Below, one piece after another: positions 33,559 to 63,474 of a stretch of DNA of 64,000 bases. The position numbers and the translations under genes are program-made. The DNA lies in assembly GCA_963785725.1 (NCBI GenBank), contig CAWAWS010000005.1:1-64000 (forward strand), read 5' to 3'. The notes below the pieces were generated by a model. That model was not told where the DNA came from. It ran no database searches and saw only the letters and a list, made by a program, of their open reading frames with translations. Origin of the DNA: an uncultured delta proteobacterium (GTDB taxonomy: Bacteria > Myxococcota_A > Polyangia > Palsa-1104). The first letter of the stretch is position 1, and each line of letters opens with the position of its first letter.

Positions 33559-33574
33559 TGCGCATATCGTGCCA
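33559..33574 (-). promoter_or_regulatory. sigma-54 promoter
   Basis: TGGCACGATATGCGCA (GG-N10-GC). Confidence 0.65.
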
Positions 33575-33635
33575 AGCTGCCCGCGCGCGCACGCTGGAGT
33601 CGCGTAGCTCGCCACCGGCGCGCTGTCGGAGATCG

Positions 33636-33678
33636 CGCAAGCCGCGCCGTCTTGGGCCACGCACGCGCAAGGCTTGCG
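33636..33678. promoter_or_regulatory. Paired palindromic activator sites
   Basis: CGCAAGCCGCGCC at 33636 (degenerate) and CGCAAGGCTTGCG at 33666; 30 bp apart. Confidence 0.6.
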
Positions 33679-33817
33679 CGCTTTGGTGATTTGCGGCCGA
33701 GCCGACCGCGAACGCGCGATTCATGCTGCTCTTGGCGGCGCCACTGCACAGACTGGGCGAGCCGCGCGAGACGACGACCGACCCGCGCTCGAGCGCGAGC
33801 GACGGCCGCTCGCTTCC

Positions 33818-34270
33818 CTACTTCGCGCCGGGCTGCGGACGCACGGTGACGACCGGAACGCTGCTCCGCCGCACCACTTGTTCCGCGACGCTGCCGAGCA
33901 CCAGGTGCTTGAAGCCACCGCGACCGTGCGTCCCCAAGACCACGAGGTCGAAGCGGCCCGAGTTGGCGAGCGATGTCACGACGTCCGCGGCCAAACCAAC
34001 TTGCACCTCGCCGGTGCACGGCGCCAGCTCGCGCGAGCGCTCGATCGCCTCGTCGATCCGCTTCTGTCCGCCGCTGACTTCGGCGGCGATGGCTTCGTTC
34101 ATCACGACGATGGCCTCGGGTGAAACGAACGTCGGCGGCTGCGCGACGTACAAGAGATGCAGCGCTGCCCCGAAGCGGCGCGCCAGCAGGACGGCGTATT
34201 CCATGGCCGGCTGCGAGCAGGCGGAGAAGTCGGTGGCGACCAGGATCCGTTTCGGTTCCGTGGGTTTCAT
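33818..34270 (-). CDS. Universal stress protein
   Basis: ILVATDFS..DLVVLGTHGRGG..LGSVAEQVVR. Confidence 0.93.
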   Translation of the reverse strand: MKPTEPKRILVATDFSACSQPAMEYAVLLARRFGAALHLLYVAQPPTFVSPEAIVVMNEAIAAEVSGGQKRIDEAIERSRELAPCTGEVQVGLAADVVTSLANSGRFDLVVLGTHGRGGFKHLVLGSVAEQVVRRSSVPVVTVRPQPGAK

Positions 34271-34283
34271 GAGACTGCGACGA

Positions 34284-34299
34284 AGCAAGCGACGTTCCA
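34284..34299 (-). promoter_or_regulatory. sigma-54 promoter
   Basis: TGGAACGTCGCTTGCT; 14 nt from GC to ATG. Confidence 0.7.
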
Positions 34300-34530
34300 G
34301 ACGTCGCGCGCGACGCACTCGGGGACAGCCGGCGACGACGCGGCGCCGCGCCGAACAAGACGAAGCCGGGATGGCAGGCCGGGTAGCCCAGAAAAAAAAA
34401 TGGACACGCTCGTCGAGAACGCAGACGCCGCTCGTCGATCACCAAAGGCTGAGATAGCCGGACAACGAAGTGCCGGCGCCCGCGAGCGGAGTCGCCACGC
34501 GCAGCTCCGTTTGGCTGCGCATGTCACGAC

Positions 34531-34986
34531 TCAGCCGTCGCCGCGGTCGTCGTCCGGCCCTTCGAGGTTGGCCTGGTGTCGGGCGACCTCGATGAGCGTC
34601 GCGGCCGCGCGCTCCGGCTTGTGCGCCGCGATGTCGGCCAGGCTGACGACACCGAGCGGCCGTCCCTCGCCGTCGGCGACGAGGATGCGCGACTTTTCGT
34701 GCAGGATCATCAAATCCTGCGCCCGCTGCACGTCGTCGGTGGCGCGGCACGATACGGGCTCCGGCGACATGACGTCCGAGACCCGTGTCTTCTTGGCCTT
34801 CAAGTTCTCGGCGCAGATGCGCAGCGCGAGGTCGCGATCGGTGACGACGCCGACGGCCTTGCCGGCTTTGTCGCAGACCGGCAGGAATCCGATGTTCCGG
34901 TCACGCATGCGACGCGCAGCCTCTTGGACCGTATCGTGACGACGAACGGTCTGAATCGACGTGCTCATGATCTCTTGGCACAGCAT
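34531..34986 (-). CDS. CBS-pair protein
   Basis: IGFLPV..GVVTDRDL..GVVSLAD. Confidence 0.92.
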   Translation of the reverse strand: MLCQEIMSTSIQTVRRHDTVQEAARRMRDRNIGFLPVCDKAGKAVGVVTDRDLALRICAENLKAKKTRVSDVMSPEPVSCRATDDVQRAQDLMILHEKSRILVADGEGRPLGVVSLADIAAHKPERAAATLIEVARHQANLEGPDDDRGDG

Positions 34987-35010
34987 GCGGACCTCCTGCG
35001 CGTGGCGGAG

Positions 35011-35026
35011 AGCAACCGATGTGCCA
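35011..35026 (-). promoter_or_regulatory. sigma-54 promoter
   Basis: TGGCACATCGGTTGCT, near consensus. Confidence 0.8.
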
Positions 35027-35101
35027 TCGCGCCCAGCCGTTCGGCGGCGAATGGCGCGACGACATCGCGGCGCGCGCCCGGCGCTTGCATCGCGCGTACG
35101 C

Positions 35102-35812: not shown

Positions 35813-35836
35813 CGCGTGAATGGCACGGCGCGAACG

Positions 35837-35926
35837 CGCAAACCCTGCGCCGACAGCGAGCGCGAACGCAGAGCATGCGCGCCACAGAGCGCAGCTTCGC
35901 GAGCCGCAGCTGGCATCGCTTTCGCT
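35837..35926 (+). promoter_or_regulatory. Paired activator sites + sigma-54 promoter
   Basis: CGCAAACCCTGCG (35837), CGCAGAGCATGCG (35867), TGGCATCGCTTTCGCT (35911). Confidence 0.7.
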
Positions 35927-35939
35927 AACAAGCCGCTCC

Positions 35940-37115
35940 ATGCACACGATCACGGTCTTCGTCATCCTTGCTGCGTTGGTGGCGCTCGCTTGGCAGTACC
36001 GGCGGTTGCTGCCGGCGGCACAAAGGCGCAGCGAGCCGCCGCCGCCACCGGCGCGATATCCTTCGTTGACGATGGTGCGACCCATCCGCGGCCTCGACTT
36101 CGGCGCGAGTGAGAACGTCACGGCGCTGCTCGCCTCCACGTATCCCGGGACACTGGAGCTTCTCTTCGTCCTCGATGACGAGAGCGACCCGGCGCTGCCG
36201 CTGGTGCGCGCGCTCGTCGCCGCGCATGTCGCCAAGCAGCCGCGGGCGCAGGTCAAGGTGCTGCTCGCGGGCGCGCCGCCGGCGGGACGCACCGGCAAGC
36301 TGCACGCGATGTCGGTCGGCGTCCGCCAGGCCACCGGCGAGCTCATCGGCTTCACCGACTCCGACACGCGGCTCGCGCCGGATCAGCTGCAGGCGATGGT
36401 CGCTGAGCTGCTCGCTTCGCCGCTCGCCGGCGACGTCTTTGCGCCAGCCGTCGCGGTGTCGCCGCCACGCACCATCGGCGATGCCGGCTATGCGCTCATG
36501 CTCAACAGCTGGTACGGCGCGGTCGCCGCCGCCAGCGCCGGCGAGACGCACGAGCTGCCCTTCATCATGGGTCAGCTCATGATCTTCCGTCGCGAGGCGC
36601 TCGTCGCCATCGGCGGCGTCGAGAGCGCCGACGGCCAGCTCGTCGACGACATGTACCTCGGCCGTCGCGTCGTCGCATTCGGTTACCGCAACCTCATGAG
36701 CCGTCAGCCGCTGCGCGTGGTCTCGGAGCAGCTCAGCCTGTCGGGCTTCGTCGTGCTCATGCGCCGCTGGCTCCTCTTTTCGCGCAGCGGTCTGCCCACG
36801 CGCTTCAAGCGTCCCGCCTGGATGCACGGCTTGGCGCTCGGTGTGACGCTGGCCGCGCTGTGTGGCGCGCTCATCGCCGGCTGGACGGCCGTCGCGATCT
36901 TCGCGGCGCTCACGCTGGCCATGGGCTGCATCGGCGACGTCTTCCTGCACCGGGAGCTGGGCGGCGCGCCCATGCCGCTCAAGTGGTGGTGGGTGACCTT
37001 GATCGTGCCGGTGCTCGGCCCGTTTGCGCTCGCTTCGCTGCTCTTCGACCGCCACGTCGACTGGCGTGGTCGCGACTACGCGCTCGACACCGGCGCGCAC
37101 CTCGGCCACTCGTAG
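35940..37115 (+). CDS. GT2 glycosyltransferase, ceramide glucosyltransferase/HpnI-like
   Basis: VRPIRGLD, GKLHAM, FTDSD, LVDDMYLG, RRW, WRGRDY. Confidence 0.88.
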   Translation: MHTITVFVILAALVALAWQYRRLLPAAQRRSEPPPPPARYPSLTMVRPIRGLDFGASENVTALLASTYPGTLELLFVLDDESDPALPLVRALVAAHVAKQPRAQVKVLLAGAPPAGRTGKLHAMSVGVRQATGELIGFTDSDTRLAPDQLQAMVAELLASPLAGDVFAPAVAVSPPRTIGDAGYALMLNSWYGAVAAASAGETHELPFIMGQLMIFRREALVAIGGVESADGQLVDDMYLGRRVVAFGYRNLMSRQPLRVVSEQLSLSGFVVLMRRWLLFSRSGLPTRFKRPAWMHGLALGVTLAALCGALIAGWTAVAIFAALTLAMGCIGDVFLHRELGGAPMPLKWWWVTLIVPVLGPFALASLLFDRHVDWRGRDYALDTGAHLGHS

Positions 37116-38445: not shown

Positions 38446-38620
38446 TGCGAGGTGAGTGCCAACCCGCGCGACGACCGCGACGACGACGGCGATTGCGCTG
38501 ACGCTGTGCCGGCCGAGAGCCCGCAACGCTTGCGGCGCATGAACGCCGGCGCGCAAATCCTGCGAGCTTCGCCGCGGAACGAGCGTGAGCGCCCGGGCAG
38601 CCGTTGGCCCTCGTCTTGCG
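38446..38620. promoter_or_regulatory. Divergent sigma-54 promoters sharing a central activator pair
   Basis: Minus TGGCACTCACCTCGCA (38446-38461); CGCAACGCTTGCG (38522) and CGCAAATCCTGCG (38552); plus TGGCCCTCGTCTTGCG (38605-38620). Confidence 0.75.
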
Positions 38621-40372: not shown

Positions 40373-40412
40373 TCGAACGACGCGCGGCGCGTCGACGACC
40401 GATTCGTGACGG

Positions 40413-40512
40413 CGCAGTGTTTGCGGCCCGAATCGGGCTCACGACTCATCGACGCAAGCCTTGCGCGCGATCGGGGTCGAACCGTGCCTTTGGCGCTGGT
40501 CCGTAGGTTGCT
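40413..40512 (+). promoter_or_regulatory. Activator sites + sigma-54 promoter of the cytochrome operon
   Basis: CGCAGTGTTTGCG (40413), CGCAAGCCTTGCG (40453), TGGTCCGTAGGTTGCT (40497). Confidence 0.7.
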
Positions 40513-40524: not shown

Positions 40525-43020
40525 ATGCGAAGCCGCCCAATCCTCCTCGCGCTGTGTGTGGCTCTCGGCTGCGAAGGTCCGCGCGGGCCGGCGGGAGCGA
40601 CGGGTCCAGCCGGTGCCACCGGTCCGACCGGCGACGCGGGAGCGCCCGGCGCGACGGGTCCGAGCGGCGACGCCGGCACCAACGGCTGCCCCGGCCTCGA
40701 GCCGGGCGCGACCGTCGGCCTGAACGCCGTCGTCGACCTCTCGACTCCGGCCAACGGCAGCTTCTTCGTCGTCGGTGAACGCGCCAAGGTCACGATTCAC
40801 TTCACCAACGGCTGCGGGCAGACCTTGCGGCCGAGCGACCTCGGGACGGCGAGCCTGTATCTGTCGGGACCGCGGCTCGGCTCGCTGACGACGACGGCGG
40901 CCAAGCTGCTCAACTGCGTCACCGATCGCAGCGCGACCGACGGCCAGCACCACTACATCAACCTGCGCAGCCCGAGCTACGCCGATCCGTCGCAAGCCAA
41001 CTTGAGCAGCGCCGCCGACGGCACGCTGACCTACACCTTGGCGCCCGTCAGCGACGAGGCCGCCGGCACGTACACGCTCGGCGTCTGGGCCAAGAGCACC
41101 GACGACAAAGACCAGCTGTTCCCGACGCTCGACTTGCAAATCGGCAACGCCACCGCCGAAACCTTTGCCAGCGGTCCGAGCGCGACGTCGACCTGCTACT
41201 CGTGCCACCGCGGCGCGCAGTCCGGCAAGTCTTATCAGGCGCACATCATCCCCGGCTTCTCGCCCGAGGGAAACTACGCGCTCGACGCCACGCCCATCGC
41301 CACCTGCAAGCTCTGCCACAACCTCGACGGCTACAGCGCCAATCCCACCGTGCGCAAGGTCCACGGCGCACATCGCGGTGCCAACCAGCTGGCGCCCGGC
41401 GTCGCTCACCCCGAGTACGGGCTCGCCGCCGATCCGACGCTGGCCGAGCTCACCGACGTCACGTTCCCGTCGATGCCGGGCGCCGAGAACGACTGCGGCA
41501 AGTGCCACGTCGACGCGCGCTGGAAGACGGCGACGCGGCTCGCCTGCGGCACCTGCCACGACAACCTCTTCTTCGACACCGGCACGCTGACGCCGCCGCG
41601 CACGTTCGGCCCGCCTCCCGCCGGCGCGTGCACGTCGGACGCCGCCTGCGGCGTCTTCGGCGACTTCGCGACCTGCGATTTGCCGTCGGGGAGCTGCTTG
41701 CGCAAGACGCACCCGCCGCAGGCCGACGACGCCCAATGCAGCGTCTGCCACACCCCCGACCCGCCGGGGCTGGCAGCGGTCTCAGCGGTGCACGCGATCC
41801 TGCCGGTCACGGCGAACCCGGGCCTCACGCTGAGCAACGTCACGCTGAGCGGCGCCAGCGGCAGCGGCGGCGCGTTCATTGCCGGCACCGACACGCCGGT
41901 CGTGACCTTCGCGCTCGTCGACGGAACCGGGACGGCCATCGCCACGCTCAAGTCGAGCTCGGTCTTCTCGGCCACCGCCATCGTGTCCGGCCCCACCGAC
42001 GACCGGCAGCGCGTCTACGGACCGCTCACCCTGAAGTCGCAAGGCACGCTCGCCTTCGACGCCACCAAGGGTCTCTATACGTACACCTTCCCGACCGCGT
42101 TTCCGGTCGGCGCGCTCGCGCCCTACAACACGACCGCGCCCTACAGCCGCGCCAACGGGCCCGGCACGTACACGCTGTGGCTCTACGTCAATGAGACCGT
42201 GACCGCGAGCGGTCAGACCTTCCGCGCCGCGGCCAACTCAATCGTCGACTTTCCCGTCGGCACCGCCGGGCCGGTGCAGCCGCGTCAGGTCGTCGCCGAT
42301 GCCGCGTGCAACGGCTGCCACGTCAACGTGCAGGCGCACGGCGGCTCGCGACAGGGCGTCGGCAGCCAGTGCTCGAATTGCCACACCAAGGGCGCGCTCG
42401 ACTTCGGCGTCGGCTCGAAGGGGCTCGCCTGCACGACGAGCGCGCAGTGCGGCGGCAACGCCGCCGGCTGGGAAGCGTGCCAGGACACCAACGGCGACGG
42501 CACGCCCGACAGCTGCGTGGTCACCGTCGATCCCACGCCCGGTCAGACCATCGACTTCGGCGTGCTCGCGCACGACATCCACTACGCCCGCCTCCGCGAC
42601 GGCTACGCCGAGCGCAACAACCTCGTCGCACCGGGCACGCTCACCGTGCTCGGCTATCAGAACGCGCTGTCGAGCTTCGCCACGGATCTGCTTCCGCAGG
42701 ACGTGCGCAACTGCAAGACCTGCCACGCCGACGCCGGCGGCAGCTGCTCGGCGACGCAGCCGTGCGGCATCGGTCAGTCGTGCGTGAGCGGCAGCTGCGT
42801 CAACGTCGCCTGGCTGACGCCGTCGACCCGCGTCTGCACTTCGTGCCACGACGACGCCAGCACCGCCGGCCACGCCGCCATCAACACCTGGACGGACGGC
42901 AGCGGCAACGTCATCGAGACCTGCGCCACCTGCCACGGCTCGGGCGCGCAATTCGCCGTCGACGTCGTGCACCAGATCGCCTCGCCCTACGTGCCGCCCT
43001 ATCCGCGAGAGAAGCAATAG
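40525..43020 (+). CDS. MtrC/OmcA-like decaheme c-type cytochrome lipoprotein
   Basis: Lipobox ALGC, collagen-like G-x-y linker, two (beta-domain + 5 CxxCH) units, RQVVADAACNGCH..AHGGSR, IDFGVLAHDIH, PQDVRNCKTCH. Confidence 0.9.
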   Translation: MRSRPILLALCVALGCEGPRGPAGATGPAGATGPTGDAGAPGATGPSGDAGTNGCPGLEPGATVGLNAVVDLSTPANGSFFVVGERAKVTIHFTNGCGQTLRPSDLGTASLYLSGPRLGSLTTTAAKLLNCVTDRSATDGQHHYINLRSPSYADPSQANLSSAADGTLTYTLAPVSDEAAGTYTLGVWAKSTDDKDQLFPTLDLQIGNATAETFASGPSATSTCYSCHRGAQSGKSYQAHIIPGFSPEGNYALDATPIATCKLCHNLDGYSANPTVRKVHGAHRGANQLAPGVAHPEYGLAADPTLAELTDVTFPSMPGAENDCGKCHVDARWKTATRLACGTCHDNLFFDTGTLTPPRTFGPPPAGACTSDAACGVFGDFATCDLPSGSCLRKTHPPQADDAQCSVCHTPDPPGLAAVSAVHAILPVTANPGLTLSNVTLSGASGSGGAFIAGTDTPVVTFALVDGTGTAIATLKSSSVFSATAIVSGPTDDRQRVYGPLTLKSQGTLAFDATKGLYTYTFPTAFPVGALAPYNTTAPYSRANGPGTYTLWLYVNETVTASGQTFRAAANSIVDFPVGTAGPVQPRQVVADAACNGCHVNVQAHGGSRQGVGSQCSNCHTKGALDFGVGSKGLACTTSAQCGGNAAGWEACQDTNGDGTPDSCVVTVDPTPGQTIDFGVLAHDIHYARLRDGYAERNNLVAPGTLTVLGYQNALSSFATDLLPQDVRNCKTCHADAGGSCSATQPCGIGQSCVSGSCVNVAWLTPSTRVCTSCHDDASTAGHAAINTWTDGSGNVIETCATCHGSGAQFAVDVVHQIASPYVPPYPREKQ

Positions 43021-44205
43021 GTGCGGCTGCCGATGGTGCTGGTCAGCCTCCTCGCGGTCGGCTGCGGCGTGGCGCGCGCCGTCGACGGCCGCCGGTGCGC
43101 CAGCGCCGCCGACTGCGAGCAGATCCATCCCGCCGGCATCGCCGATCCGAGCAGCCCCGACTTTCACGGGCAGCTCGTGCAGTCGCTCGGCTGGAACCTC
43201 GGGCTGTGCGCGCAGTGCCACGGCGCCGACTTCAGCGGCGGCGCCTCGGGCAAGTCGTGCCTGACGTGCCATGCCCAAGGACCGACCGCCTGCACCGTCT
43301 GCCACGCACAACCGCCGGCGACGGGCGCGCACGTCGCCCACGCCGCCAAATACGACTGCACCGTCTGCCACGTCAAGCCGGCAGCGTGGAACGATCCCGG
43401 GCACCTCTTCGCCAGCGACGGCAGCGTCATCACGAGCGCGCGCATCACGTTCGGCGGGCTCGCCGTGAGCCACGGCGCGACGCCGAGCTGGGATGGCGCC
43501 AGCTGCAGCGGCACCTATTGCCACGGCAGCGCCAAGCCGGTCTGGACCGGCGGCGCCGGCCAAGCGGCCTGCGGCAGCTGCCACGCCATTCCGCCCGCCA
43601 ACCACGCCAGCAGCCGCTGCGGCGACTGCCACGTCCGCGTCGCCAACGACCAGGCGCAGATCGTCGACGACGCGCTACACGTCGACGGACAGGTCAGCCT
43701 CGGCGATGACAGCGGCACCTGCCTCGCCTGCCATCCGCAGCCGGGCGGCGCGCACGCCAGCCACACGCAGGCGCTGCACGAGCTGCGCGCCCCGCTCGGC
43801 TGCCCCGAGTGCCACGTCGTGCCCACGATGCTCACGAGCCCCGGCCACATCGATCAGCCGAGCGCGCCAGTCTTCCCCGCCGGCTGGAGCGGGCTCGGCG
43901 CCAACGACGGCGCGCAGCCGACCTGGAGCCTCGCCGCCGGTCAGTGCAGCAGCGTCTACTGCCACGGCGGCGGCAAGACGCTCGGCGCCGACGCCGCCGC
44001 GACGATCATTCGTCAGCCGACGTGGATTCCCGGCAGCGGTGCCGCCAGCTGCGGCGCCTGCCACGGCATCCCGCCCGTCGACGGCGCGCACTCGGCCTCG
44101 ATGGGGCTCGGCGACTGCGCGACGTGCCATCCGACGACGATGAACGCCGGCGGCGGGCTCATCAGCGGCGGCACCCATATGGACGGCGTCATCGATGCGC
44201 TTTAG
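43021..44205 (+). CDS. Multiheme cytochrome lipoprotein with Geobacter-type CxxxxCH...CxxCH domains
   Basis: Lipobox AVGC; 10 CxxCH plus 2 CxxxxCH (CSGTYCH, CSSVYCH), each followed by P.W...CGxCH. Confidence 0.9.
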   Translation: MRLPMVLVSLLAVGCGVARAVDGRRCASAADCEQIHPAGIADPSSPDFHGQLVQSLGWNLGLCAQCHGADFSGGASGKSCLTCHAQGPTACTVCHAQPPATGAHVAHAAKYDCTVCHVKPAAWNDPGHLFASDGSVITSARITFGGLAVSHGATPSWDGASCSGTYCHGSAKPVWTGGAGQAACGSCHAIPPANHASSRCGDCHVRVANDQAQIVDDALHVDGQVSLGDDSGTCLACHPQPGGAHASHTQALHELRAPLGCPECHVVPTMLTSPGHIDQPSAPVFPAGWSGLGANDGAQPTWSLAAGQCSSVYCHGGGKTLGADAAATIIRQPTWIPGSGAASCGACHGIPPVDGAHSASMGLGDCATCHPTTMNAGGGLISGGTHMDGVIDAL

Positions 44206-45460
44206 CGCGCGGCCGCTGTTGCTCGTGTTGCTGCTCGGCGGCGTCGCGCGCGGCGAGACGGTCGACGCCACGCTGACCACGATCCTGCAGGGCCGACAAG
44301 ATCCGCGCGACGGCAACCTTTACACGTCGGTGCCGCTGTATCAGACGATGACGCTGACGATCGACGACGTGCCGCTGCGCCATGTCGACGATCTGCGGCT
44401 CGTCCTGTCGGGCTGGGGCCAGTTCCAATTCGCGCCCAGCGGCTCGGCGCTCGCAGGCACCGGTGACGTCGACGTCGGCTTCGTCGAGGGCAAGCTGTTT
44501 CATCGCCGCCTCGAGCTGCGGCTCGGGCGGCAGCTCGTCTTCGGCGGCGCCGCCCACGCCTTGCCGCTCGACGGCGCGTCGGTCACCGCGCGCCTGCCGC
44601 GCCGACTCGCGCTCAACGTCTATGGCGGCGTGCCGGTGACGCCACGCTTCGGCGTGCACCAGGGCGACTTCGCCGCCGGCGGCCGGCTGTCGCTGCGGCC
44701 GACGGTCGACAGCGAGCTGGGCGCGTCGTTCCTCGAGATGCTCAAGGACGGCCTACAGGCGCGCCAGGATCTCGGCTTCGACGCGCGCTATCGCCCGTCG
44801 CTGCCGGCGCTGCGCTCGCTGGTGCTGACCGGCTATGCGCTGGTGAGCCTCATCGAGCTGCGGCTCATCGAGGGCGACGTCGCCGCCGTCTGGCAGGCGC
44901 GCGCGCCCTTGCAGCTCGGCGTCGACTATCGGCGCACCTCGCCCGATCTGTACCTGCCGCGCAGCTCGATCTTGTCGGTCTTCGCGCAGGAGACGCACGA
45001 CGAGGTCGGCGGCAACCTCTATTGGCGCCCGCTGTCGCGCTTGCGCATCGAGGGCGACTATCACGCCATCCTCGACGACGACGGCTTCGGGCAGCGCGGC
45101 GGCGCGCGCGTCGTCGGCACCTTGGGCGCGGCCTTCACGACGACGCTCACCGCCGAGACGCGCGTGCTGCGCCTCGCCACCGGCGACGGCTACGTGCAGG
45201 GTCGGCTCTACGCCATCCAGCGGCTGTCGACGCGGCTCGTCGGGACGCTCGATCTCGACGCCTACTCGCTCGAGAAGCCGATCAACGGCCAGACCTTCTC
45301 GTTCACCAGCGCGGCCACGCTCGGCTGGGACTTCGCGCCCGGCTGGCGCACGGTGCTGACCGCGATCGCCGACTCGACGCCGCAGGTCGAGCGCCGCTTC
45401 GAGTGCATGGCCAAGGTCGTCTACAACGCCGTCTACCACGTGCGGCGGGTGATTCAGTGA
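44195..45460 (+). CDS. Putative outer-membrane beta-barrel (porin of a porin-cytochrome conduit)
   Basis: Signal peptide, alternating amphipathic strands (LELRLGRQ..LDGASV, LNVYGG, LGVDY, LGWDF); overlaps the multiheme genes on both sides. Confidence 0.75.
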   Translation: MRFSARPLLLVLLLGGVARGETVDATLTTILQGRQDPRDGNLYTSVPLYQTMTLTIDDVPLRHVDDLRLVLSGWGQFQFAPSGSALAGTGDVDVGFVEGKLFHRRLELRLGRQLVFGGAAHALPLDGASVTARLPRRLALNVYGGVPVTPRFGVHQGDFAAGGRLSLRPTVDSELGASFLEMLKDGLQARQDLGFDARYRPSLPALRSLVLTGYALVSLIELRLIEGDVAAVWQARAPLQLGVDYRRTSPDLYLPRSSILSVFAQETHDEVGGNLYWRPLSRLRIEGDYHAILDDDGFGQRGGARVVGTLGAAFTTTLTAETRVLRLATGDGYVQGRLYAIQRLSTRLVGTLDLDAYSLEKPINGQTFSFTSAATLGWDFAPGWRTVLTAIADSTPQVERRFECMAKVVYNAVYHVRRVIQ

Positions 45461-46524
45461 GCGGCGCGCGCGGCTTTGTCCTCGTCGTCGCTTGTGCCGT
45501 CGGCGCCGCCGCCTGTGCGCCGTGGCTGACGATTCGGCTGCCGTACAAAGCCGATCACCTCAAGGTGCCGCACGGGCTGCACGCGCAAGGCAAGGTCGAG
45601 TGCATCGCCTGCCACGACGAGCTCTACGACGCCAAGAACCTCGAGCAGCGCGTGCTGCCCGCCGAGGCCAAGTGCCTCGAGTGCCACCGCGAGCAGAAGG
45701 CCAACGGCCAGTGCGGCTTCTGCCACACCGACGTGACGCGCGCCCGAGCGTGGCCGGCGCGCGAGCCGACGCTGCGCATGTCGCACGCCGAGCACATCGA
45801 TCGAGTCAAGGAGGACTGCCATGTCTGCCACAAGACGCTGCCCAATCCGCTGCGCGGCACCGACGGGACGCCGCCCATGAGCGCCTGCCTCTCGTGTCAC
45901 GAGCATCAACAGGAGTACGACGAGGGCCGCTGCTCTCGCTGCCACATCGACTTGACGCGCTATCCGCTCAAGCCCGTGTCGCTGTTCTCGCACCAAGGCA
46001 ACTTCGTGCGCGAGCACGGCCGCTCGGCGCGCGCCGCGGCCGACACGTGCGCCCAGTGCCACGAGCAGACCTTCTGCAGCGACTGCCACGCGCGCACCGT
46101 GTCGATGCCGATCGAGCAGAAGCTGCCCGAGCGCGTCGACGCCGACTTCATCCATCGCAACGACTTCATCGACCGTCATGTCGTCGAAGCGAAGGCCGAT
46201 CCGGCGTCGTGCCGGCGCTGCCACGGCTCGACCTTCTGCGACGACTGCCATCGCGCGCAGAACCTGACGCCGCAAGCGGCCAACCCGCGCGATCCGCACC
46301 CGGCCGGCTGGTCGTTCCCGGGCGCGGCGCAGTTCCACGGCACCGAGGCGCGGCGCGACATCAACCAGTGCGCCGCCTGCCACGATCAGGGCGCGCGCTC
46401 CATCTGCGTCGACTGCCATAAGGTCGGCGGCATCGGCGGCGATCCGCATCCGGCCGGCTGGTCGGCGCGCCACGGCCGTAACGAGATCGCGCGCAGCTCG
46501 ATGTGCCTCGCGTGCCACTCGTGA
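45457..46524 (+). CDS. 13-heme c-type cytochrome (c3/c7-like repeats), putative lipoprotein
   Basis: GTG start overlapping the porin stop, AAAC lipobox, 13 CxxCH in about 355 aa with HxxH distal ligands. Confidence 0.9.
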   Translation: MSGARGFVLVVACAVGAAACAPWLTIRLPYKADHLKVPHGLHAQGKVECIACHDELYDAKNLEQRVLPAEAKCLECHREQKANGQCGFCHTDVTRARAWPAREPTLRMSHAEHIDRVKEDCHVCHKTLPNPLRGTDGTPPMSACLSCHEHQQEYDEGRCSRCHIDLTRYPLKPVSLFSHQGNFVREHGRSARAAADTCAQCHEQTFCSDCHARTVSMPIEQKLPERVDADFIHRNDFIDRHVVEAKADPASCRRCHGSTFCDDCHRAQNLTPQAANPRDPHPAGWSFPGAAQFHGTEARRDINQCAACHDQGARSICVDCHKVGGIGGDPHPAGWSARHGRNEIARSSMCLACHS

Positions 46525-47129
46525 GCCTCGTCGGCCTCGGCATCGTCGCCGCGCTCTTGCTGCTCTTGCCGCTCGTCGTGCGGCCCTCGTTGACGCTGCG
46601 CAGGGTCGGGCGCGTCTTCGCTTTCGTCGCCATCGTCGTCGTGCCGGTGGCGGTGGGCTTCGGCGGCCTCAGCGAGCACATCGAGCACTCCAAGACGACC
46701 GCCTTTTGCCTCTCGTGCCACGTGATGGAGCCGTACGGACGGAGCTTTCACGTCGACGACCTGGACCATCTACGGCGCAGCACTGGCAATACAGCCGCGT
46801 GCCGCGCGAGACCGCCTGCTTTACCTGCCACACCAACTACACGCTTTACGGCGACTACAAAGCCAAGCTGCGCGGGCTGCATCACGTCTGGGTGCAGTAC
46901 CTCGGAACCATCCCGAAGACGCTCGCGCTGTACACCCCGTACGACAATCGCGAGTGCCTGCATTGCCACGACGGCGCGCGCTCGTTCGTCGAGGCGATCC
47001 CGCACAAGAGCTGAGCTCGCCGCCATCCTCGCCAACCGCAAGTCGTGCGTGGCGAGCGGCTGCCACGCCACCGTGCACGACGTCGCGCACGTCGACGCGC
47101 TCCCGAAGTGGCCCAAGGAGAATCCATGA
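46521..47129 (+). CDS. NapC/NirT (CymA/NrfH-like) membrane tetraheme quinol dehydrogenase, two frameshifts
   Basis: Two TM helices, FCLSCHVM; middle part in ORF 46706-47014 (CFTCH, KAKLRGLHHV, CLHCH); returns to the first frame for CVASGCH. Confidence 0.85.
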   Translation: MSLVGLGIVAALLLLLPLVVRPSLTLRRVGRVFAFVAIVVVPVAVGFGGLSEHIEHSKTTAFCLSCHVMEPYGRSFHVDDLDHLRRSTGNTAACRARPPALPATPTTRFTATTKPSCAGCITSGCSTSEPSRRRSRCTPRTTIASACIATTARARSSRRSRTRAELAAILANRKSCVASGCHATVHDVAHVDALPKWPKENP

Positions 47130-47407: not shown

Positions 47408-47409
47408 CC

Positions 47410-47742: not shown

Positions 47743-47755
47743 CCGCGAACGACCG

Positions 47756-47856
47756 CGCACGCCTTGCCGCCGCCGGCGGCGCCGCCGCAAATCCTGCGCG
47801 AGTCGCGCGGAGGCGACCGCGCCGTCGCGGCTGCGGCTTTCGGCACGCCTCCTGCT
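47756..47856 (+). promoter_or_regulatory. Paired activator sites + sigma-54 promoter
   Basis: CGCACGCCTTGCC (47756), CGCAAATCCTGCG (47786), CGGCACGCCTCCTGCT (47841). Confidence 0.72.
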
Positions 47857-50630: not shown

Positions 50631-50732
50631 CTGTCACGCCCGCCCCGCGCGATAGCCGCGCCACCTCGACGCCATTCGCATCGCCCGAGACGTATGCCAG
50701 GTCGTGCCACGCCCGTCGCCGCCGACGCCGCA

Positions 50733-50832
50733 CGCAAGCGCTGCGTCGCCTGCGCCGGCCCTCCGCAACTCTTGCGCGGTCTTGCGGTTTCGCCCCGCGC
50801 GACCGCCGCGAAGAGTTGGCGCGGTTCGCGCA
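50733..50832 (+). promoter_or_regulatory. Paired activator sites + sigma-54 promoter
   Basis: CGCAAGCGCTGCG (50733), CGCAACTCTTGCG (50764), TGGCGCGGTTCGCGCA (50817). Confidence 0.68.
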
Positions 50833-51210: not shown

Positions 51211-53779
51211 TCAGCGGATGAGCTTGCGCATCAGTCGCCCCTTGACCAGCTCGACCAACCCCAAGTAAGTGAGCGTCGCCAGCGTCAAGAAGGCGAAGAA
51301 CGGCAGCGGCAACGGCACGAAGCCGAGCGCGCCCGCCAGCGGCGAATAGGGCAGCGCCAGCGCCACCGCCGTCGCGCCCAGCGTCGTCAGCACGAGCGCC
51401 GGGCTGGGCCGATTGCGCCACGGCCGCCCAACGGTGCGAATGACGAACAGCACCAGCGTCTGCGTCGCCAGCGACTCGACGAACCAGCCCGTGTGAAACA
51501 GCCGCTCGGACGCGTGAAACAGCCGCAGCAGCACGAAGAAGGTCAGAAAGTCGTAGATCGAGCTGAGCGGGCCGATCCACAGCATGAAGCTGCGAATCGC
51601 GCCGATGTCCCACTTGCGCGGCTTGATCGTGTAGGCCGGGTCGACGCGATCGAGCGGGATCGTCAGCTGCGCCAGGTCGTAGAGGAAATTATTGAGCAGG
51701 ATCTGCGTCGGCAGCATCGGCAGGAACGGCAAGAAGAGCGACGCGCCCGCCATCGACAGCATGTTGCCGAAGTTGGAGCTGGTGCCCATGAGCAGGTACT
51801 TGAGCACGTTGCCGAAGGCGCGCCGCCCCTCGACGATGCCGGTATGCAGGACGTCGAGGCCCGGCCGCATGAGGATGACCTCGGCGGCGTCGCGCGCCAC
51901 GTCGACGGCGCTGGCGACCGAGATGCCGACATCGGCGGCGCGCAAGGAAGGCGCATCGTTGATGCCGTCGCCGAGGAAGCCGACGACGTGGCCGCGACTC
52001 TTGAGCGCCATCAGAGATCCGGTTCTTCTGCCCGGGGCTCAGCCGCGCGAACAGCGCCACCTCCTCGGCGCGCTTGCCCAGCGCCGCGTCGGTCAGCCGA
52101 CCGATGTCGGCGCCCGAGAGCACATCGTCGACGGGCAAGCCGACGCGCGCGCAGACATGACGGGCAACGGGCTCGTTGTCGCCGGTGAGGATCTTGACCA
52201 CGACGCCGTCGGCGCGCAGCCGCTCGAGCATGGCCGCGGCGTCGTCGCGAGGCGGGTCGCAAAAGGCGAGGAAGCCGAGGAGCGTGAGGTCGCGCTCGTC
52301 GCCGGCGTCGAGCCCGTCCGGGCGTGTGACCGCGGCGATCGCCACCGCCAGCACGCGCAACCCCTCTTCGCCGAGCGCACCGAAGGTCGCTTGCGCGCGC
52401 GCCTGCTCGGCGTCATCGAATGGGATGCGGCGACCGTCGCGCTCGACCGCGCTGCACAGCGGCAGCACCGACTCCGGCGCGCCCTTGGTGACGAGCAGAT
52501 GCTGCGCGTCGTGCTGCAAGACGACGGAGACGCGCCGGCGCTCGAAGTCGAACGGGATCTCGTCCGTCTTGCGCCAACCTTCGGCCGGCGTGCACGGTCG
52601 CGCCAGGATGGCGGCGTCGAGCGGGCTCTTGATGCCGGTCTCGTAAACCGCGTTGAGATAGCCGTGCTCGAGCACACGCGGCGCGTCGTTGCCGGCGATG
52701 TCGACGGTGCGCTCGAGCGCGGTCGAGCCGGTGGTGAGCGTGCCGGTCTTGTCGCTGCACAACACATCGATGCTGCCGAGGTTCTGGATCGCCGCCAGCT
52801 GCTTCACGATCACGTGCGCACGGCCCATGCGCACCGCGCCGCGCGCCAGCGTCACCGTCGTGATCATGGGCAGAAACTCGGGCGTCATGCCGACGGCGAG
52901 CGCGACGGCGAACAGCAGCGACTGAAAGGCGTCGCGATGCAGCAGCACGCTCACCATCACGATGAACAGCACGAGAAACAGCACGGTGCGCGCGATGAAG
53001 AGGCCGAACTGCCGCGTGCCGCGCTCGAACTCCGTCGGCGGCGGGTGATGCGCCAGCCGGGCAGCGATGTCGCCGAAGGCGGTGGCCGCGCCGGTAAAGG
53101 CCACCCGCGCCGTCGCCGTGCCGCTGACGACGGAAGTGCCGAGGAAAACCATGTGCGCCGCGTCGGCGTCGCGCGAGACCGGCAGCACCCCCGAGCGCTT
53201 CTCGACCGGCAGCGACTCGCCCGTCAGCGCCGCCTGCGCCACATGCAAATCGTGGGATGACAAGAGCCGGCAGTCGGCGGGGACCAAGTCTCCCGCGCAC
53301 AGCTTGACGAGATCGCCGGGGACGATTTCGCGGCGCGGCAGCTCTTGCCAACGACCGTCGCGCATGACGGTCGCCGTCGGCGCGACCGTCGCCTGCAGAC
53401 GCTCCACGGCGCGCGCCGAGCGATAGGTCTGCACGAAGTCGATGGCGATGCCGAGCACGACCATGAGCCCGATGATCGCCGCGTCCACGCGTTCGCCGAG
53501 CACGGCCGAGACCACCGCGGCGATGGCCAAGAGAAGTATCAACGGGCTGGCCGCGAAGTGACCGAGCGCTCGCAAGGGCGACCACCGGTCGGCCGTCGCC
53601 GATTCATTGAAGCCGTGACGCTCGCGCAGCGCGCGCGCCGCTTCGTCGGTCAGTCCGGCGTCGTCAGCGGCGGCGGATTCGCCGCCGGGCGCAGCCGCCT
53701 CGTTCGCCAGCGACGACCCCGCGATCCCCGAAGCGGCGGCGCGGCGATCGCGAGCAGAGACGCGAGTGACAGGGCGCAT
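51211..53779 (-). CDS. mgtA: Mg2+-importing P-type ATPase, one frameshift near 52012
   Basis: LTGES, PEFLPMI, DKTGT, IPFDFERRR, TKGA, TGDN; continues GDGINDA, SSNFGNMLS, QILLNNFLYD, TGWFVES. Confidence 0.9.
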
Positions 53780-53791: not shown

Positions 53792-54003
53792 TGCGAGGCC
53801 CGCGCCAACGGATTCGCCGCGGAGCTCGCCGATCGGCGCATCCCGAGCGCGGACGTTGGAAGAACCGTGCCGTCGCCAACGCTCGACTGCCCTGGCCGCA
53901 TGACCCAGCGTCGCGCAACCTTGGCGCCCGGATCAGCCGGAAGCCGCAAAGTCTGCGCGCATTCGACGGGTCGACGCCATCTGCGCCTGGCATCGCGCTC
54001 GCT
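53792..54003. promoter_or_regulatory. Divergent sigma-54 promoters with central activator pair
   Basis: Minus TGGCGCGGGCCTCGCA (53792-53807); CGCAACCTTGGCG (53914) and CGCAAAGTCTGCG (53945); plus TGGCATCGCGCTCGCT (53988-54003). Confidence 0.68.
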
Positions 54004-54015: not shown

Positions 54016-55130
54016 ATGCAAACGATCGCGGTCTTCATCATCCTGAGCGCGCTCTCCTGTCTGGCCTGGCAGTGCCGGCGTCTGTTTCAGTCCGCGCAAT
54101 CCCGCGTCGCCCGACCGTCGGTGCCGCGCGGTCATCCTGCGTTGACGATGGTGCGCCCCGTGCGCGGGCTCGACTTCGGAGCGCGCGCGAGCATCGAGAC
54201 GCTGCTGACGAGCGCCTATCCCGGAACGCTCGAGCTCATCCTCGTCCTCGACGATGACGATCCGGCGCTGCCGATGGTGCGCGCCCTAGTCCGACGCCAT
54301 CGGCAGCGCCATCCGGAGGCGTGCGTCAGGTCTTGCTCGCGGGCGCGCCGCCGGCCGGATGCTCGGGCGAGCTGCACGCGATGTCGGTCGGCGCGCGGCA
54401 CGCCACCGGCGCGCTCATCGGCTTCAGCGACTCCGACACGCGGCTCGAGCCGCAACAGCTGCATGCGATGGTCGACGAGCTGCTCGCCGAGCCGAGCGCC
54501 GGCGACGTCTTCGCGCCCACCGTCGCCACCACGTCCCCACGCACGCTCGGCGAGGCCGGCGCCGCACTCTTGGTCAACCGCTGGTATGGCACCGTCGCCG
54601 CTGCCACGGCCGGACCAGCGCAAACGCTGCCCTTACTCACCGGTCCGCTCATGATCTTTCGCCGCGAAGCGCTCGACGCGATCGGGGGATCGGCTGCGCG
54701 GACAGCCAGCTCGTCGCCAAGATGGCGCTCGGCGGTCGCGTCGTCGCATGCGGCTATCGCAACCTCGTGAGCCGCTATCCGCTGCGCCTCGTCACCGAGT
54801 CGCTCGGCCTGTCGGGTCTCGTCGGGTTCATGCGCCGTTGGCTCCTGGTCTCGCGCAGCGGTCTGCCGGCGCGCCTCGCGCGTCCAGTGTGGCTGCACGA
54901 TTTGGCGCTCGGCGTCACGCTGGCGGCGCTCTGCGGCGCGCTCGTCGCCGGCTGGGTCGGCGTCGCCACGTTCGCGGCGCTCACGCTCGCCATTGGCTGC
55001 CTCGGTGACATCCTCTTGCATCAGGAGCTCGGCGGCGCACCCGTCCCTGTCAAGTGGTGGTGGGTCAGCCTGTTGATGGCGCTGCTCGGCCCGTTTGCGT
55101 TCGCGTCGCTGCTCTTCGGTCGTCGTGCTG
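54016..55130 (+). pseudogene. Decayed duplicate of the 35940 glycosyltransferase
   Basis: Colinear paralog split over three frames (breaks near 54325 and 54690); GKLH changed to GELH, VDDM to VAKM; terminal WRGRDY lost. Confidence 0.8.
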
Positions 55131-57822: not shown

Positions 57823-58458
57823 TCAGGCGGCATGGCCACCCTGACGCGCGAGCCAGCGGGTCACGTCGAGTGTCGTGACCAGCCCGACGATCTCCAGATG
57901 GCCCGCGGTCACGAGGACGTGATGCACCCCTTCCGTCGCCATCAGCGCCGCTCCTTGCAGAAGTGAGACGTGCTCGTCGACCATGAACGGAATGGGCATC
58001 ATGACCTCGTCGACGGTCCGGGCATCGCTGCCGAGGGCCAGCGCGCCCAAGAGGTCGGAGCGCGCCAGCATTCCAACCGGGCGTCCGCCTGGGCCGACGA
58101 CAGGCGCTCCGCTCAGGCCTCGCTCGATGAGGAGTGTCCGTGCGTCGCCGCAACCGACGCTGGCCGCCAGGCAGACGCACGATTCGCCCATGACCTCGCC
58201 CATGGTCGGGATGGTCAGGGTGAGCGTCTCGGTCGCGGCGGCCGGCGACGGCGGCGCCGACGCGCACAGCACGGCGCGAATCCCATTCTGATCGAGCCGC
58301 AGCCCATGACTGCGCTGGCAGGCGTGGCAGCGATCGAGCGAGCAGGTCGCACCTCGCTCGGGGCAATGCACCACCAGCGCGCGCTCGCATGCGCCTCGCT
58401 TGTAATAGGTCGATCGAACGCGCACGCCAATCTGCGTCAACGTCGTGGGCGGGCTCAT
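57823..58458 (-). CDS. CBS-pair protein with N-terminal Cys-rich domain
   Basis: HCPERGATCSLDRCHAC..VLC, then LSGAPVV..GMLARSDLL..GLVTTLDV. Confidence 0.85.
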   Translation of the reverse strand: MSPPTTLTQIGVRVRSTYYKRGACERALVVHCPERGATCSLDRCHACQRSHGLRLDQNGIRAVLCASAPPSPAAATETLTLTIPTMGEVMGESCVCLAASVGCGDARTLLIERGLSGAPVVGPGGRPVGMLARSDLLGALALGSDARTVDEVMMPIPFMVDEHVSLLQGAALMATEGVHHVLVTAGHLEIVGLVTTLDVTRWLARQGGHAA

Positions 58459-58482
58459 CGTGCACCTCCACGTCATCCGCTA

Positions 58483-58573
58483 TGAGAAAAGCGTGCCGGC
58501 TAAAGGGCGCGATGGACCCTGATCTTTCGCGCAAACGCTGCGCCCGCCGGCAGATCGCGCGCCAAATCGTGCG
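58483..58573 (-). promoter_or_regulatory. Variant sigma-54 promoter + activator pair
   Basis: CGGCACGCTTTTCTCA (TC instead of GC at -12); CGCAAACGCTGCG (58530) and GCCAAATCGTGCG (58561). Confidence 0.5.
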
Positions 58574-58601
58574 CGGGTCGCCGCTCGGTTGCGCGTCGGC
58601 T

Positions 58602-59715: not shown

Positions 59716-59728
59716 GCTCGTTCCTTAT

Positions 59729-59818
59729 TGCCAATGACGTGCCGGCGCGAAAAGCCGGCCGAGCGTTCCCGATCGCGCAAGCGATGCGCCGGCGCTCGAT
59801 GGAGACGCAAAGGCAGCG
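59729..59818 (-). promoter_or_regulatory. sigma-54 promoter + activator pair
   Basis: CGGCACGTCATTGGCA (59729-59744); CGCAAGCGATGCG (59776) and CGCAAAGGCAGCG (59806). Confidence 0.68.
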
Positions 59819-60015
59819 CGAACGCACGCGCGCGCCGACTGACGCCGAGCGTCGCGCCCAGCTGCGGGCGCAGTCGCCGTAACACGCTCGAAGATGCCTT
59901 TACTGCGCGAAGTCAATGGGCGGCGTGAAGAGCAACGGTTGCGCGGGACAGCGTGCCGTGCCGCGGCGCTTACGGGCGCGACGCGTCGGTGGTCGAGTCG
60001 AGCTCGGTCCGGGGA

Positions 60016-61389
<1,374 letters not shown>

Positions 61390-61511
61390 CTGTTCCTCTC
61401 GATTCCGCTGTTCGCCAGGCAAGCCATCGTCGAATCGGTGCGCGCAACTGCTCCTGCGAGCCAAGCAAGCTTCGCGCCAGCCAGAGGAACCCAGCTGGCG
61501 CGTCACACGCC

Positions 61512-61554
61512 GGCAAACGTTGCGCCGGTACCGAGCACAAACGCAAGCTTTGCG
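61512..61554. promoter_or_regulatory. Paired palindromic sites upstream of the activator gene
   Basis: GGCAAACGTTGCG (61512) and CGCAAGCTTTGCG (61542), 30 bp apart. Confidence 0.7.
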
Positions 61555-61627
61555 CGTATCAGTCCAGCTGAGGCGGAGCCTGCGGCGAGTCGTTCTTTCT
61601 AGGGCGACACGCGTCGGGATGGAGGCG

Positions 61628-62434
61628 CTATCGCTTCGGCGCTCCGGCCGTCCGCGGTTCACGTTCGAGGAGCCACCAGCGCGGCCGCGGGCGACGGTAG
61701 CTCAAGCCGAAGTCGGACAGCGCACGGGCGCGCACCAAGGCGGCGGCCTCTTGCGGCGAGTCGGTCAGCACGAGGCGGTCGACATCGATGACGTCGATAG
61801 TGCCGCTGCCGAGCAGTCGCTCGCGCAGATAGCCGAGCAGCGGACGCCAATGATCGACGCCCAAGAGGACGATGGGAAAGTCGATCATCTTGCCGGTCTG
61901 AATCAGGACGGCCACTTCGAAGAGCTCATCGAGCGTCCCAAAGCCGCCCGGCACGGCGATAAAGGCGTAGGAGTATTTGGCCAACATCAGCTTGCGCACG
62001 AAGAAATAGCGAAACTGCACCCAGTCATCGAGATAGACGTTCGGCCTCTGTTCGGCGGGCAGGATGATGTTGCAACCGATCGAGCGGCCCTGGACATCCT
62101 TGGCGCCGCGATTGGCCGCCTCCATCAGCCCCGGCCCGCCGCCGGTCAAGACCGTGAATCCAGCGCGCGCGAGCTCGGCCCCGAGCTCCCGCGTCATCGC
62201 ATAATAGGGATGAGTCGGGCCGAAGCGCGCCGAGCCGAAAACCGTCGCGCACGGCCCGGCGAAGTGCAGGTGGCGAAAGCCGCGAATCATCTCGCCGAAG
62301 ACGCGGAAGGCAACGCGGAGCTCACGGTGTCGTGCGCGCGGGCCGACGAGAAATCGCTGCTCCTCGGCATCGCCCGTCGACTTGCCCCATTCCGGCTCCT
62401 CTGGCGTCGCGGCCGGGGCCAGCGGCTGGCTCAT
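61628..62434 (-). CDS. LOG family (TIGR00730-type) nucleotide phosphoribohydrolase
   Basis: [37 protein letters not shown]. Confidence 0.92.
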
Positions 62435-62469
62435 CTCCCGCTCGGATCTTGGCGCATGTCGCAGCGCCA

Positions 62470-62573
62470 TGCGAGCGACATGCCGATATGAGCAGTCACC
62501 CTCGAGCACCCGTCGGTCACTCATCTCGATGCGATCTGCGCGAGACGGCCTGAGATGCGGCACGCGCCTTGCT
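62470..62573. promoter_or_regulatory. Divergent sigma-54 promoters
   Basis: Minus CGGCATGTCGCTCGCA (62470-62485); plus CGGCACGCGCCTTGCT (62558-62573). Confidence 0.68.
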
Positions 62574-62670
62574 GTCTGCCAGACGTGAAGCTGCCCATGA
62601 TGAAGTCGAAGATGATACTGAGCCAGGCTGGCAGTCCGGCGCCGCAGCTGACCTCGGACCGGTGGTTCTA

Positions 62671-63042
62671 ATGGCGTCCCACCCTCCAGCCGGCGGAGGT
62701 GCTCCGGCGCGGATTCTCGTCGTCGACGCGGAGCCGAACGCGACGTCTGCGCTGGCCGAGCTCTTGGGCGACGAAGGCTACGAGGTCTATTGCGCGGACA
62801 ACGGGGCGTCGGCGCAAGTGAGCTTGCAAGCGCTGTGTCCCGATCTGCTGCTGACCGGTCTGCAACTTCCCGGCGCCCAATCGCTCGAGGAGACCGCCGC
62901 GCAGCTCTCGACGGCCATCGTGCGCATGCTGGCGACCGGTCCGGTTCGTGGCGACGGATCGGCCGTGCTGCTCAAGCCGATCGATGTCGGCGAGCTGTTG
63001 GCGATGGTCGAGGGCGCGCTGGCACGGCGACACTCCCGTTAG
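62671..63042 (+). CDS. Atypical single-domain receiver protein
   Basis: RILVVDAEPNATSALAELLGDEGYEV..PDLLLTGLQLPG..LKPIDV; Gly at the phosphoacceptor position. Confidence 0.75.
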   Translation: MASHPPAGGGAPARILVVDAEPNATSALAELLGDEGYEVYCADNGASAQVSLQALCPDLLLTGLQLPGAQSLEETAAQLSTAIVRMLATGPVRGDGSAVLLKPIDVGELLAMVEGALARRHSR

Positions 63043-63149
63043 AAGCGAGTGACACGACGCCACCTCATGCGAAAGACCGAGGCATGGTGGTCGGCGGACC
63101 GATGACGAGCCGGACGGCCCGAGGCTGAGCCGAGCGGCAGCAGCGGTGC

Positions 63150-63430
63150 GCCGCGTGGCGTCGTTCTTCTCGTCGACGACAACGCGGCTCTCGTCGACAA
63201 CTTGTGCGAGATCGTCGAGGACGCCGGATTCCGCACGCGCCGCGCCCACGGCTTCGTCGAGGCCCACGCGCAAGCGGCCAGAGGATTGGACGACGGCTTG
63301 TCTCTTGCTGACCGCTGCAGCTATCGAACGTCACCGCGCGGCGCTGCAAGAGGCCGGGCGCATCGCGGACGTGCGCATCAGCGAAGGCCCGGCGCCCAAG
63401 CGGGCGCGCACGCGACGCACGCGTCATGTG
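63150..63430 (+). pseudogene. Degenerate receiver-domain fragment
   Basis: GVVLLVDDNAALVDNLCEIVEDAGF resembles the second REC of the 30998 regulator; central part missing or frameshifted. Confidence 0.5.
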
Positions 63431-63458
63431 CGGCCGCTCGCGATGAAACCGCCGTCAT

Positions 63459-63474
63459 TGGAACGTTTGATGCT
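63459..63474 (+). promoter_or_regulatory. sigma-54 promoter
   Basis: TGGAACGTTTGATGCT. Confidence 0.68.

Follow-up and report, generated by a model that had tools for sequence, protein, structure and literature searches.

A gene island with paired palindromes in an uncultured member of the Polyangia as the probable regulon of an NmpRSTU-type oxygen-sensing relay

The DNA analysed here (the window) comprises the first 64,000 nucleotides (nt) of contig CAWAWS010000005.1 from an uncultured delta proteobacterium of the class Polyangia (assembly GCA_963785725.1; 8.9 Mb, 47 contigs, 88% complete). This genome is called G000 below and the window is G000:C5:1-64000; other G-numbers are genomes of relatives and L-numbers are fetched loci. 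Between positions 33559 and 63474 lies a gene island with ten pairs of a short palindrome, and these pairs match the published binding site of NmpR, the NtrC-type activator that acts as a low-oxygen gene switch in Myxococcus xanthus (PMC11841059). Judged from sequence comparison, the island is probably the regulon of an NmpRSTU oxygen-sensing relay, with its pairs bound by NmpR and a porin–cytochrome conduit among its targets; that this cluster is NmpR-run as well is likely. A preliminary description of this DNA had not recognised the operator as one already described, and its main claim of novelty falls because operator and regulator, together with the regulatory logic, were known; the part that looks new is the conduit as a target.

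The paired palindromes and their promoters

Here and below, statements on M. xanthus follow the available sections of the papers cited. NmpR binds GCGCA-N5-TGCGC in pairs, with a gap of 14-15 nt at five of seven bound promoters and of 24 nt at that of nmpU, and every bound site retains GCA-N5-TGC (PMC11841059). Among the papers searched, one contains this consensus string. The preliminary description had reported a 13-bp palindrome, CGCAA-N3-TTGCG, and all 20 sites lie where it had placed them, five of them exact, ten with one mismatch, three with two and two with three (33636 and 58561). A 15-mer describes the motif better, with the 13-mer as its inner part: 18 of the 20 sites are at most two mismatches from GCGCA-N5-TGCGC, and the GCA-N5-TGC core is intact in 16. 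The mutagenesis primers suggest that the essential S2 site of mxan_4236, a gene up 6.5-fold in sealed tubes in an NmpR-dependent manner, is an exact 13-mer match (PMC11841059). The site consensus, the pairing at three (once four) helical turns and the sigma-54 promoters are shared with M. xanthus (PMC6211767, PMC11841059), whereas the gap within the ten pairs, 15 nt in six, 16 nt in three and 25 nt in one, is mostly 15-16 nt here and 14-15 nt there (PMC11841059).

That the pairs are chance palindromes of GC-rich DNA is a reading to which we give next to no credence. At loose thresholds the pair counts do equal those of shuffled sequence (43 versus 33 and 82 versus 88) and the excess is gone, but at strict thresholds the island holds seven pairs, 28-32 bp apart with at most three mismatches in total, whereas 100 dinucleotide shuffles gave a mean of 0.02 and never more than one; the whole genome has 15. 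The published NmpR rule alone, applied without training on the window (at most two mismatches per site, GCA-N5-TGC intact, sites 29-31 bp apart), yields seven pairs genome-wide, five of which fall in the island, all five in the 13% of it that is intergenic. With this placement and the promoter phase in other genomes described below, chance is refuted. The 15-mer alone gives no genome-wide spacing peak, which appears only when the core or extra A/T is required. Outside the island, pairs are found at C24:187633, 193415 and 206746 and at C3:533770. The last is a lone NmpR pair with a sigma-54 promoter before the start of a gene for a universal stress protein (USP)-like product, which breaks off into unrelated insertion-like sequence (G000:C3:533770-534750; L102).

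Promoters were scored as matches out of 12 to TGGCACG-N4-TTGCW, a sigma-54 consensus; the bare GG-N10-GC was discarded as evidence, being uninformative with 748 occurrences in the island. Matches of at least 10/12 number 15 in the island versus 2.3 per equal length genome-wide, and at 9/12 or better there are 19 gene-proximal, correctly oriented candidates, in line with the 17 or so of the preliminary description. Of the ten pairs, nine can be assigned to 11 canonical promoters in all, and the tenth (58529) faces a non-canonical -12 element. Distances are given as x/y, from the centre of the proximal/distal site to the G of the -24 element. The leftmost pair (33635-33679; 30 bp, first site weak) lies 69/99 bp from promoter 33559-33574(-), which points through a divergent open reading frame (ORF) towards nmpU-nmpT; this ORF (33020-33559) is not claimed as a hemerythrin, the match having only E 0.24. 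The 30-bp pair at 35836-35880 stands 39/69 bp from promoter 35911-35926(+) of the glycosyltransferase gene 35941-37115, and the one at 38521-38565, also of 30 bp, sits between divergent promoters, 38446-38461(-) of the Adh gene at 68/98 bp and 38605-38620(+) of a USP and an acetyl-CoA hydrolase gene at 48/78 bp. The only 40-bp pair (40412-40466), 39/79 bp from promoter 40497-40512(+), precedes the cytochrome cluster, as the preliminary description had noted. Further to the right, the pair at 47755-47799 (30 bp) is 50/80 bp from promoter 47841-47856(+) of the CBS gene 47878, that at 50732-50777 (31 bp) is 48/79 bp from promoter 50817-50832(+) of an ORF of 66 amino acids (aa), and that at 53913-53958 (31 bp) is 38/69 bp from promoter 53988-54003(+) of a split glycosyltransferase gene and 114/145 bp from 53792-53807(-) of a split MgtA-like ATPase gene. 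Upstream of the CBS gene 57823-58476, the pair at 58529-58574 (31 bp, with a weak second site) faces, at 39/70 bp, the -24 element of 58483-58498(-). In this promoter the -24 element is intact and the -12 element lacks its G; three relatives (L083, L099, L139) show the same, in phase with a pair, ahead of the corresponding CBS-domain gene. The 30-bp pair at 59775-59819, 39/69 bp from promoter 59729-59744(-), belongs to a gene earlier called Acg, whose product is a fragment of 87 aa that matches nitroreductases only weakly (E 0.003-0.008). Finally, the strongest pair of the genome (61511-61555; 30 bp) is 40/70 bp from promoter 61464-61479(-) of the first nmpR copy, which is thus predicted to be autoregulated.

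Proximal sites lie 38-40, 48-50 or 68-69 bp from the -24 G, with the 114 bp at the MgtA-like gene as the exception, and a phase test of 11 proximal distances (the MgtA-like gene left out, the 58483 promoter added) gave p values of 1e-4 to 6e-4. The geometry recurs in other genomes (120 loci, 1.29 Mb), as read with a matrix trained on the window and from loci that are in part kin or overlapping and so not independent: among 110 distinct pairs, 73 have a spacing of 29-31 bp; a strong sigma-54 site lies within 130 bp of 47 of 84 pairs (29-31 or 39-41 bp) versus 2.4% for 3000 randomly chosen positions; and the site–promoter distance is 38-42 bp in 37 of 60 cases. Both in the window and in relatives, sites and sigma-54 promoters are in helical phase, and the earlier proposal of a sigma-54 regulon whose enhancer sites stand in tandem on one face of the helix holds. 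Site, spacing and promoter phase are thus conserved across many related genomes, for a regulon stated to be unknown outside M. xanthus, Anaeromyxobacter included (PMC11841059), and a distance of ~39+10n bp to the -24 G offers a sharper rule for predicting NmpR targets.

The NmpRSTU components

As judged by their sequences, all four NmpRSTU parts are present in G000; only the gene order differs. The predicted oxygen sensor is a 386-aa protoglobin histidine kinase of the NmpU/AfGcHK type (31699-32859, minus strand; Pfam Protoglobin, HisKA and HATPase), the only one of its kind found in G000. Its globin domain matches that of AfGcHK, the studied NmpU homologue from Anaeromyxobacter sp. Fw109-5 (PDB 5OHE), with E 2.9e-54 over residues 2-157, and its predicted heme ligand, His95, corresponds to H96 of NmpU. 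A 234-aa double receiver protein of the NmpT type (30998-31702, minus strand), with two Response_reg stretches, follows nmpU as it does in relatives, and both genes are intact. The range of 33559-63474 set in the preliminary description covers the sites and the activator, and misses these sensor genes (30998-32859) just to its left.

The activator encoded at 60016-61389 (minus strand; 457 aa) has the receiver, AAA+ domain with GAFTGA motif and Fis-type helix-turn-helix of NmpR and is assigned to it by family and tree placement; residues D54, V87 and K104-P105 carry the same numbering as given for NmpR, and the best named match, among the matches listed, is from a Polyangiaceae genome (64%). 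A second copy, 86% identical, is found on contig C24, head to head with a receiver-HisKA-HATPase kinase of the NmpS type (L100:4145-6739, corresponding to G000:C24 ~190640-193240). In its neighbourhood there are pairs before a gene for a four-CBS protein and behind the activator, together with a PAS-PAS kinase and a single receiver. Two NmpR copies (83-86%) are also present in G002 and G004. The preliminary description was right about an NtrC-type activator with a pair upstream of its own gene; its assignment of control to that one activator went too far, as the C24 twin has the same recognition helix and sits beside its likely cognate kinase.

The motif might in principle be read by another sigma-54 activator of G000, since 65 of its proteins match the first copy at E 1e-30. 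We regard this as highly improbable: apart from the C24 twin these proteins are at most 48% identical (best 25 of 65), an NmpR-type recognition helix occurs, among the matches listed, only in the two copies (SPRTIQYRL in both), the motif is the tested NmpR site, and in relatives the pairs cluster at nmp loci. The comparison with M. xanthus was made through metagenome locus L137, where the genes are ordered as in M. xanthus and nmpU is preceded by a pair 39 bp apart, a CBS gene by one 29 bp apart. Its activator covers two NmpR primer stretches, which the nmpR primers match with zero and one mismatch, carries the helix SVRKIQYRL and has the window copy as its best G000 match (54%, 489 bits), followed by the twin (464 bits) and the next non-twin (411 bits). 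In a FastTree tree of 83 proteins, which took in the 44 other G000 activators (of 63) that aligned over 300 residues, both copies grouped with this M. xanthus-type NmpR and the nmp-linked activators in a clade of 29 with support 0.999, which holds none of those 44; two nmpU-neighbouring activators (39-44%) fell outside it. The published nmpR primer had no match in sets of 14, 112 and 196 genomes, samples seemingly without Myxococcus.

The four components with the same domains, nmpR autoregulation and CBS, USP and P-type ATPase genes as targets are all features of the M. xanthus system (PMC6211767, PMC11841059). Unlike in M. xanthus, there are two NmpR copies here, nmpS stands apart from nmpUT and the targets are packed in one 30-kb island (PMC11841059). 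In Anaeromyxobacter sp. Fw109-5, as on C24, nmpR adjoins nmpS in opposite orientation (PMC11841059). Within the stretches fetched, the nmpU loci of relatives (n = 18) include an NmpS-type kinase in 14 cases, a double receiver in 13 and an activator in ten; the metagenome nmpU loci of at least 8 kb (30 of 80 fetched) have the kinase in 22 and the activator in 16. The separation of nmpS leaves room for a rewired input, in which NmpR would bind the sites and the C24 kinase would answer a signal other than that of the protoglobin sensor. Besides the location of nmpS on another contig, next to the PAS-PAS kinase and the single receiver, five loci of relatives (L112, L238, L253, L254, L257) with a longer globin-kinase arrangement or without nmpT speak for this. 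We nevertheless consider it improbable, given that the C24 kinase (L100:4145-5266) is 71-72% identical to kinases behind nmpU-nmpT in genomes of the same genus, that nmpU and nmpT are intact with the predicted heme His, and that the targets fit hypoxia.

The porin–cytochrome cluster and its sites in relatives

Downstream of its sigma-54-type promoter (40497-40512, plus strand; 10 of 12 consensus positions), the cluster encodes, all on the plus strand, an MtrC/OmcA-like decaheme cytochrome of 831 aa (40525-43020; ten CxxCH motifs, PF22113 at E 1e-30), a decaheme cytochrome of the Geobacter CxxxxCH type (43021-44205), a predicted outer-membrane β-barrel of 421 aa (44195-45460), a 13-heme cytochrome (45457-46524), a NapC/NrfH-like membrane cytochrome in three frames in the assembly (46521-47123) and a monoheme cytochrome c (47404-47742). 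The MtrC-like protein has, after its signal region, a collagen-like repeat (40570-40700) that is also seen in the G010 and G017 homologues. The barrel protein has no Pfam or NCBIfam match; folded as a single sequence it reached a predicted local distance difference test score (pLDDT) of 29, and refolding with AlphaFold2 on a 22-sequence alignment gave pLDDT 83 and 22 strands, with usher and porin barrels as the best Foldseek matches and no MtrB among the matches listed. In this model an outer-membrane β-barrel is encoded among multiheme cytochromes, and the predicted role of the cluster is electron transfer across the outer membrane.

Conduits of the MtrCAB/porin–cytochrome type from Shewanella and Geobacter likewise combine a decaheme MtrC-like protein, a β-barrel, multiheme partners and a NapC-like cytochrome in one cluster. 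Unlike in MtrCAB, the MtrC-like protein here falls under the TIGR03507 cut-off, and the barrel is of ~400 aa and without a family match. The Shewanella conduit genes are controlled by CRP, Fnr or Fur. A porin–cytochrome conduit is absent as an NmpR target from those text sections of PMC11841059 that cover the targets. In a search made largely without subscription papers, no publication was found that joins Polyangia with multiheme electron transfer, or that deals with regulation of the Anaeromyxobacter porin–cytochrome genes by oxygen, the titles and first abstract lines of further papers listed showed no such link, and the string "Myxococc" does not occur in the main text, as available, of PMC12133095, PMC11475568 and bioRxiv 10.64898/2026.05.27.727921.

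A search of 121 genomes found the barrel protein in 22; seven of the 21 other than G000 could not be judged (contig ends, partial clusters), which leaves 14 assessable relatives. In five of them, G002, G004, G010, G041 and G049, all with an activator at least 74% identical, the cluster is preceded by a pair and a promoter in phase with it (38-49 bp; promoters of 8-10/12). As background, outside the island such a pair lies upstream of three G000 genes out of 7556 in a rough gene call. In G010 the pair and promoter precede the MtrC-like gene via a hemerythrin-like ORF, and the connection to the barrel crosses a contig break. G060 is ambiguous: its pair precedes a pyruvate phosphate dikinase gene that lies immediately upstream of the cluster. 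Because pair and promoter are present in five and absent in eight of the 14, the link between NmpR and the conduit, as traced by sequence across three families (six genomes including G000), is conserved and not obligatory. Four of the eight pair-negative relatives have no activator match at 1e-150; in two others it is 69% (G022) and 58% (G050) identical.

The arrangements themselves vary. In G002 (L125:934-7782) the conduit consists of two converging halves, with the pair only at the MtrC-like half; in G060 (L248:2988-14841) a 31-heme cytochrome of 1352 aa is encoded before the barrel gene and the 40-bp pair of the dikinase gene is shared with a divergent hemerythrin gene; and in G017 (L242:3254-19513) the conduit, with two MtrC-like genes and no NmpR pair, lies behind genes for a molybdopterin oxidoreductase, an Fe-S protein and NrfD.

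The proposed relay, its weight and its surroundings

In M. xanthus, NmpU is active in oxygen and NmpS is off, and in hypoxia NmpS phosphorylates NmpR (PMC6211767, PMC11841059). By analogy, the protoglobin kinase would in oxygen phosphorylate NmpT and NmpS and so keep NmpS off; without oxygen, the C24 NmpS would phosphorylate NmpR, whose dimers would bind the pairs and switch on the nearby sigma-54 promoters as oxygen falls. A spacing of 30-31 bp (40 bp in one pair) between sites, and of ~39+10n bp to the -24 element, would place the dimers on the same face, where they could oligomerise and contact the polymerase directly. Since the C24 copy of nmpR has neither an NmpR site nor a sigma-54 promoter upstream and the window copy has the best pair of the genome, the former may serve as a standing starter and the latter as a positive-feedback amplifier. 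The putative targets comprise the USP, CBS, Adh, acetyl-CoA hydrolase, glycosyltransferase and MgtA-like genes and the porin–multiheme cluster, which may provide an outlet for electrons, presumably flowing outwards, when oxygen is short. In M. xanthus, NmpR targets include CBS, USP, hemerythrin and P-type ATPase genes, and cbb3 oxidase, HemN and pilR are also named; the conduit, Adh, acetyl-CoA hydrolase and glycosyltransferases set the present list apart (PMC11841059). The low-oxygen cue guessed at in the preliminary description is consistent with the motif and the NmpRSTU-type components.

Several observations weigh against this assignment. Five of ten predicted M. xanthus promoters did not bind NmpR (PMC11841059), and the core kept by all bound sites there is broken in four of the 20 island sites. 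The link to M. xanthus NmpR (MXAN_4240) runs via the L137 protein as a stand-in, and the arrangement of nmpU, nmpT and nmpS in a single operon, seen in most relatives, is not found here, with nmpS on C24 and nmpUT in the window. Eight of the 19 candidate promoters, located before USP, CBS, LOG and receiver genes (34284(-), 35011(-), 48330(+), 49881(+), 57350(-), 62470(-), 62558(+) and 63459(+)), match the consensus and have no pair within 260 bp; for this reason control of the whole island by the activator, as earlier claimed, is not shown. The MtrC-like protein scores 167 bits against TIGR03507, with a cut-off of 209, so that it is called MtrC-like and not filed as a family member, and it has no PDB sequence match. 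The conduit lacks a pair in G003, G014, G017, G022, G025, G026, G050 and G374; of these, G003 and G017 have the activator at 75-80% identity. Finally, frameshifts split several island genes: the NapC-like gene (46521-47123), one USP gene (49398-49859), the MgtA-like gene (51211-53779) and the second glycosyltransferase gene (54017-55127), which may reflect either real decay or assembly errors. The sequencing runs listed for this DNA comprised three DNA sets, with a small share each, and no RNA set.

On the strength of these frameshifts, the 87-aa nitroreductase fragment, the pair-less promoters and the cluster that G003 keeps without sites, the island and its conduit could be viewed as a decaying store of duplicated Nmp targets, with relic sites and no working outlet. 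This seems to us even less probable than a rewired input: no break affects the four core conduit genes or any Nmp gene, the phase between pair and promoter is kept in six genomes of three families, and the breaks may be errors of assembly, G002 also showing a split nmpU. The assignment of the island to an NmpRSTU relay thus remains by far the preferred one.

A wider reading, which we put forward tentatively and with somewhat less than even confidence, is that in several myxobacteria of this class NmpU, through NmpR and sigma-54, switches the conduit on and allows respiration on minerals or humics without oxygen in a group thought to be aerobic, that the conduit has joined and left the Nmp regulon repeatedly, and that the duplicated, self-activating NmpR is an amplifier. 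An extracellular electron-transfer cluster is indicated as an NmpR target by the sequences of six genomes; if the reading is true, soil myxobacteria held to be aerobic would respire on such substrates once oxygen is gone. A comparable design is the DosR system, in which a heme-sensor kinase turns on USP- and CBS-rich gene sets in hypoxia; its regulator family, site and sigma factor are unrelated to those of NmpR, and it works alike without being a member. The mycobacterial DosR dormancy regulon is named as a parallel to Nmp in PMC11841059.

Around the island, an extension of the regulon into C5 64000-82000 was looked for, and two single sites and two promoters were found there, with no pair. 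Just past the island, a phosphoketolase gene stands ahead of an ATP synthase operon of beta-first order, with no NmpR pair found (L103:8062-17400; G000:C5 70061-79359). On the other side, positions 4475-13116 of the window look mobile, encoding a DUF5906 protein, an OLD-family ATPase/TOPRIM protein in DNA of lower GC content and a large serine recombinase.

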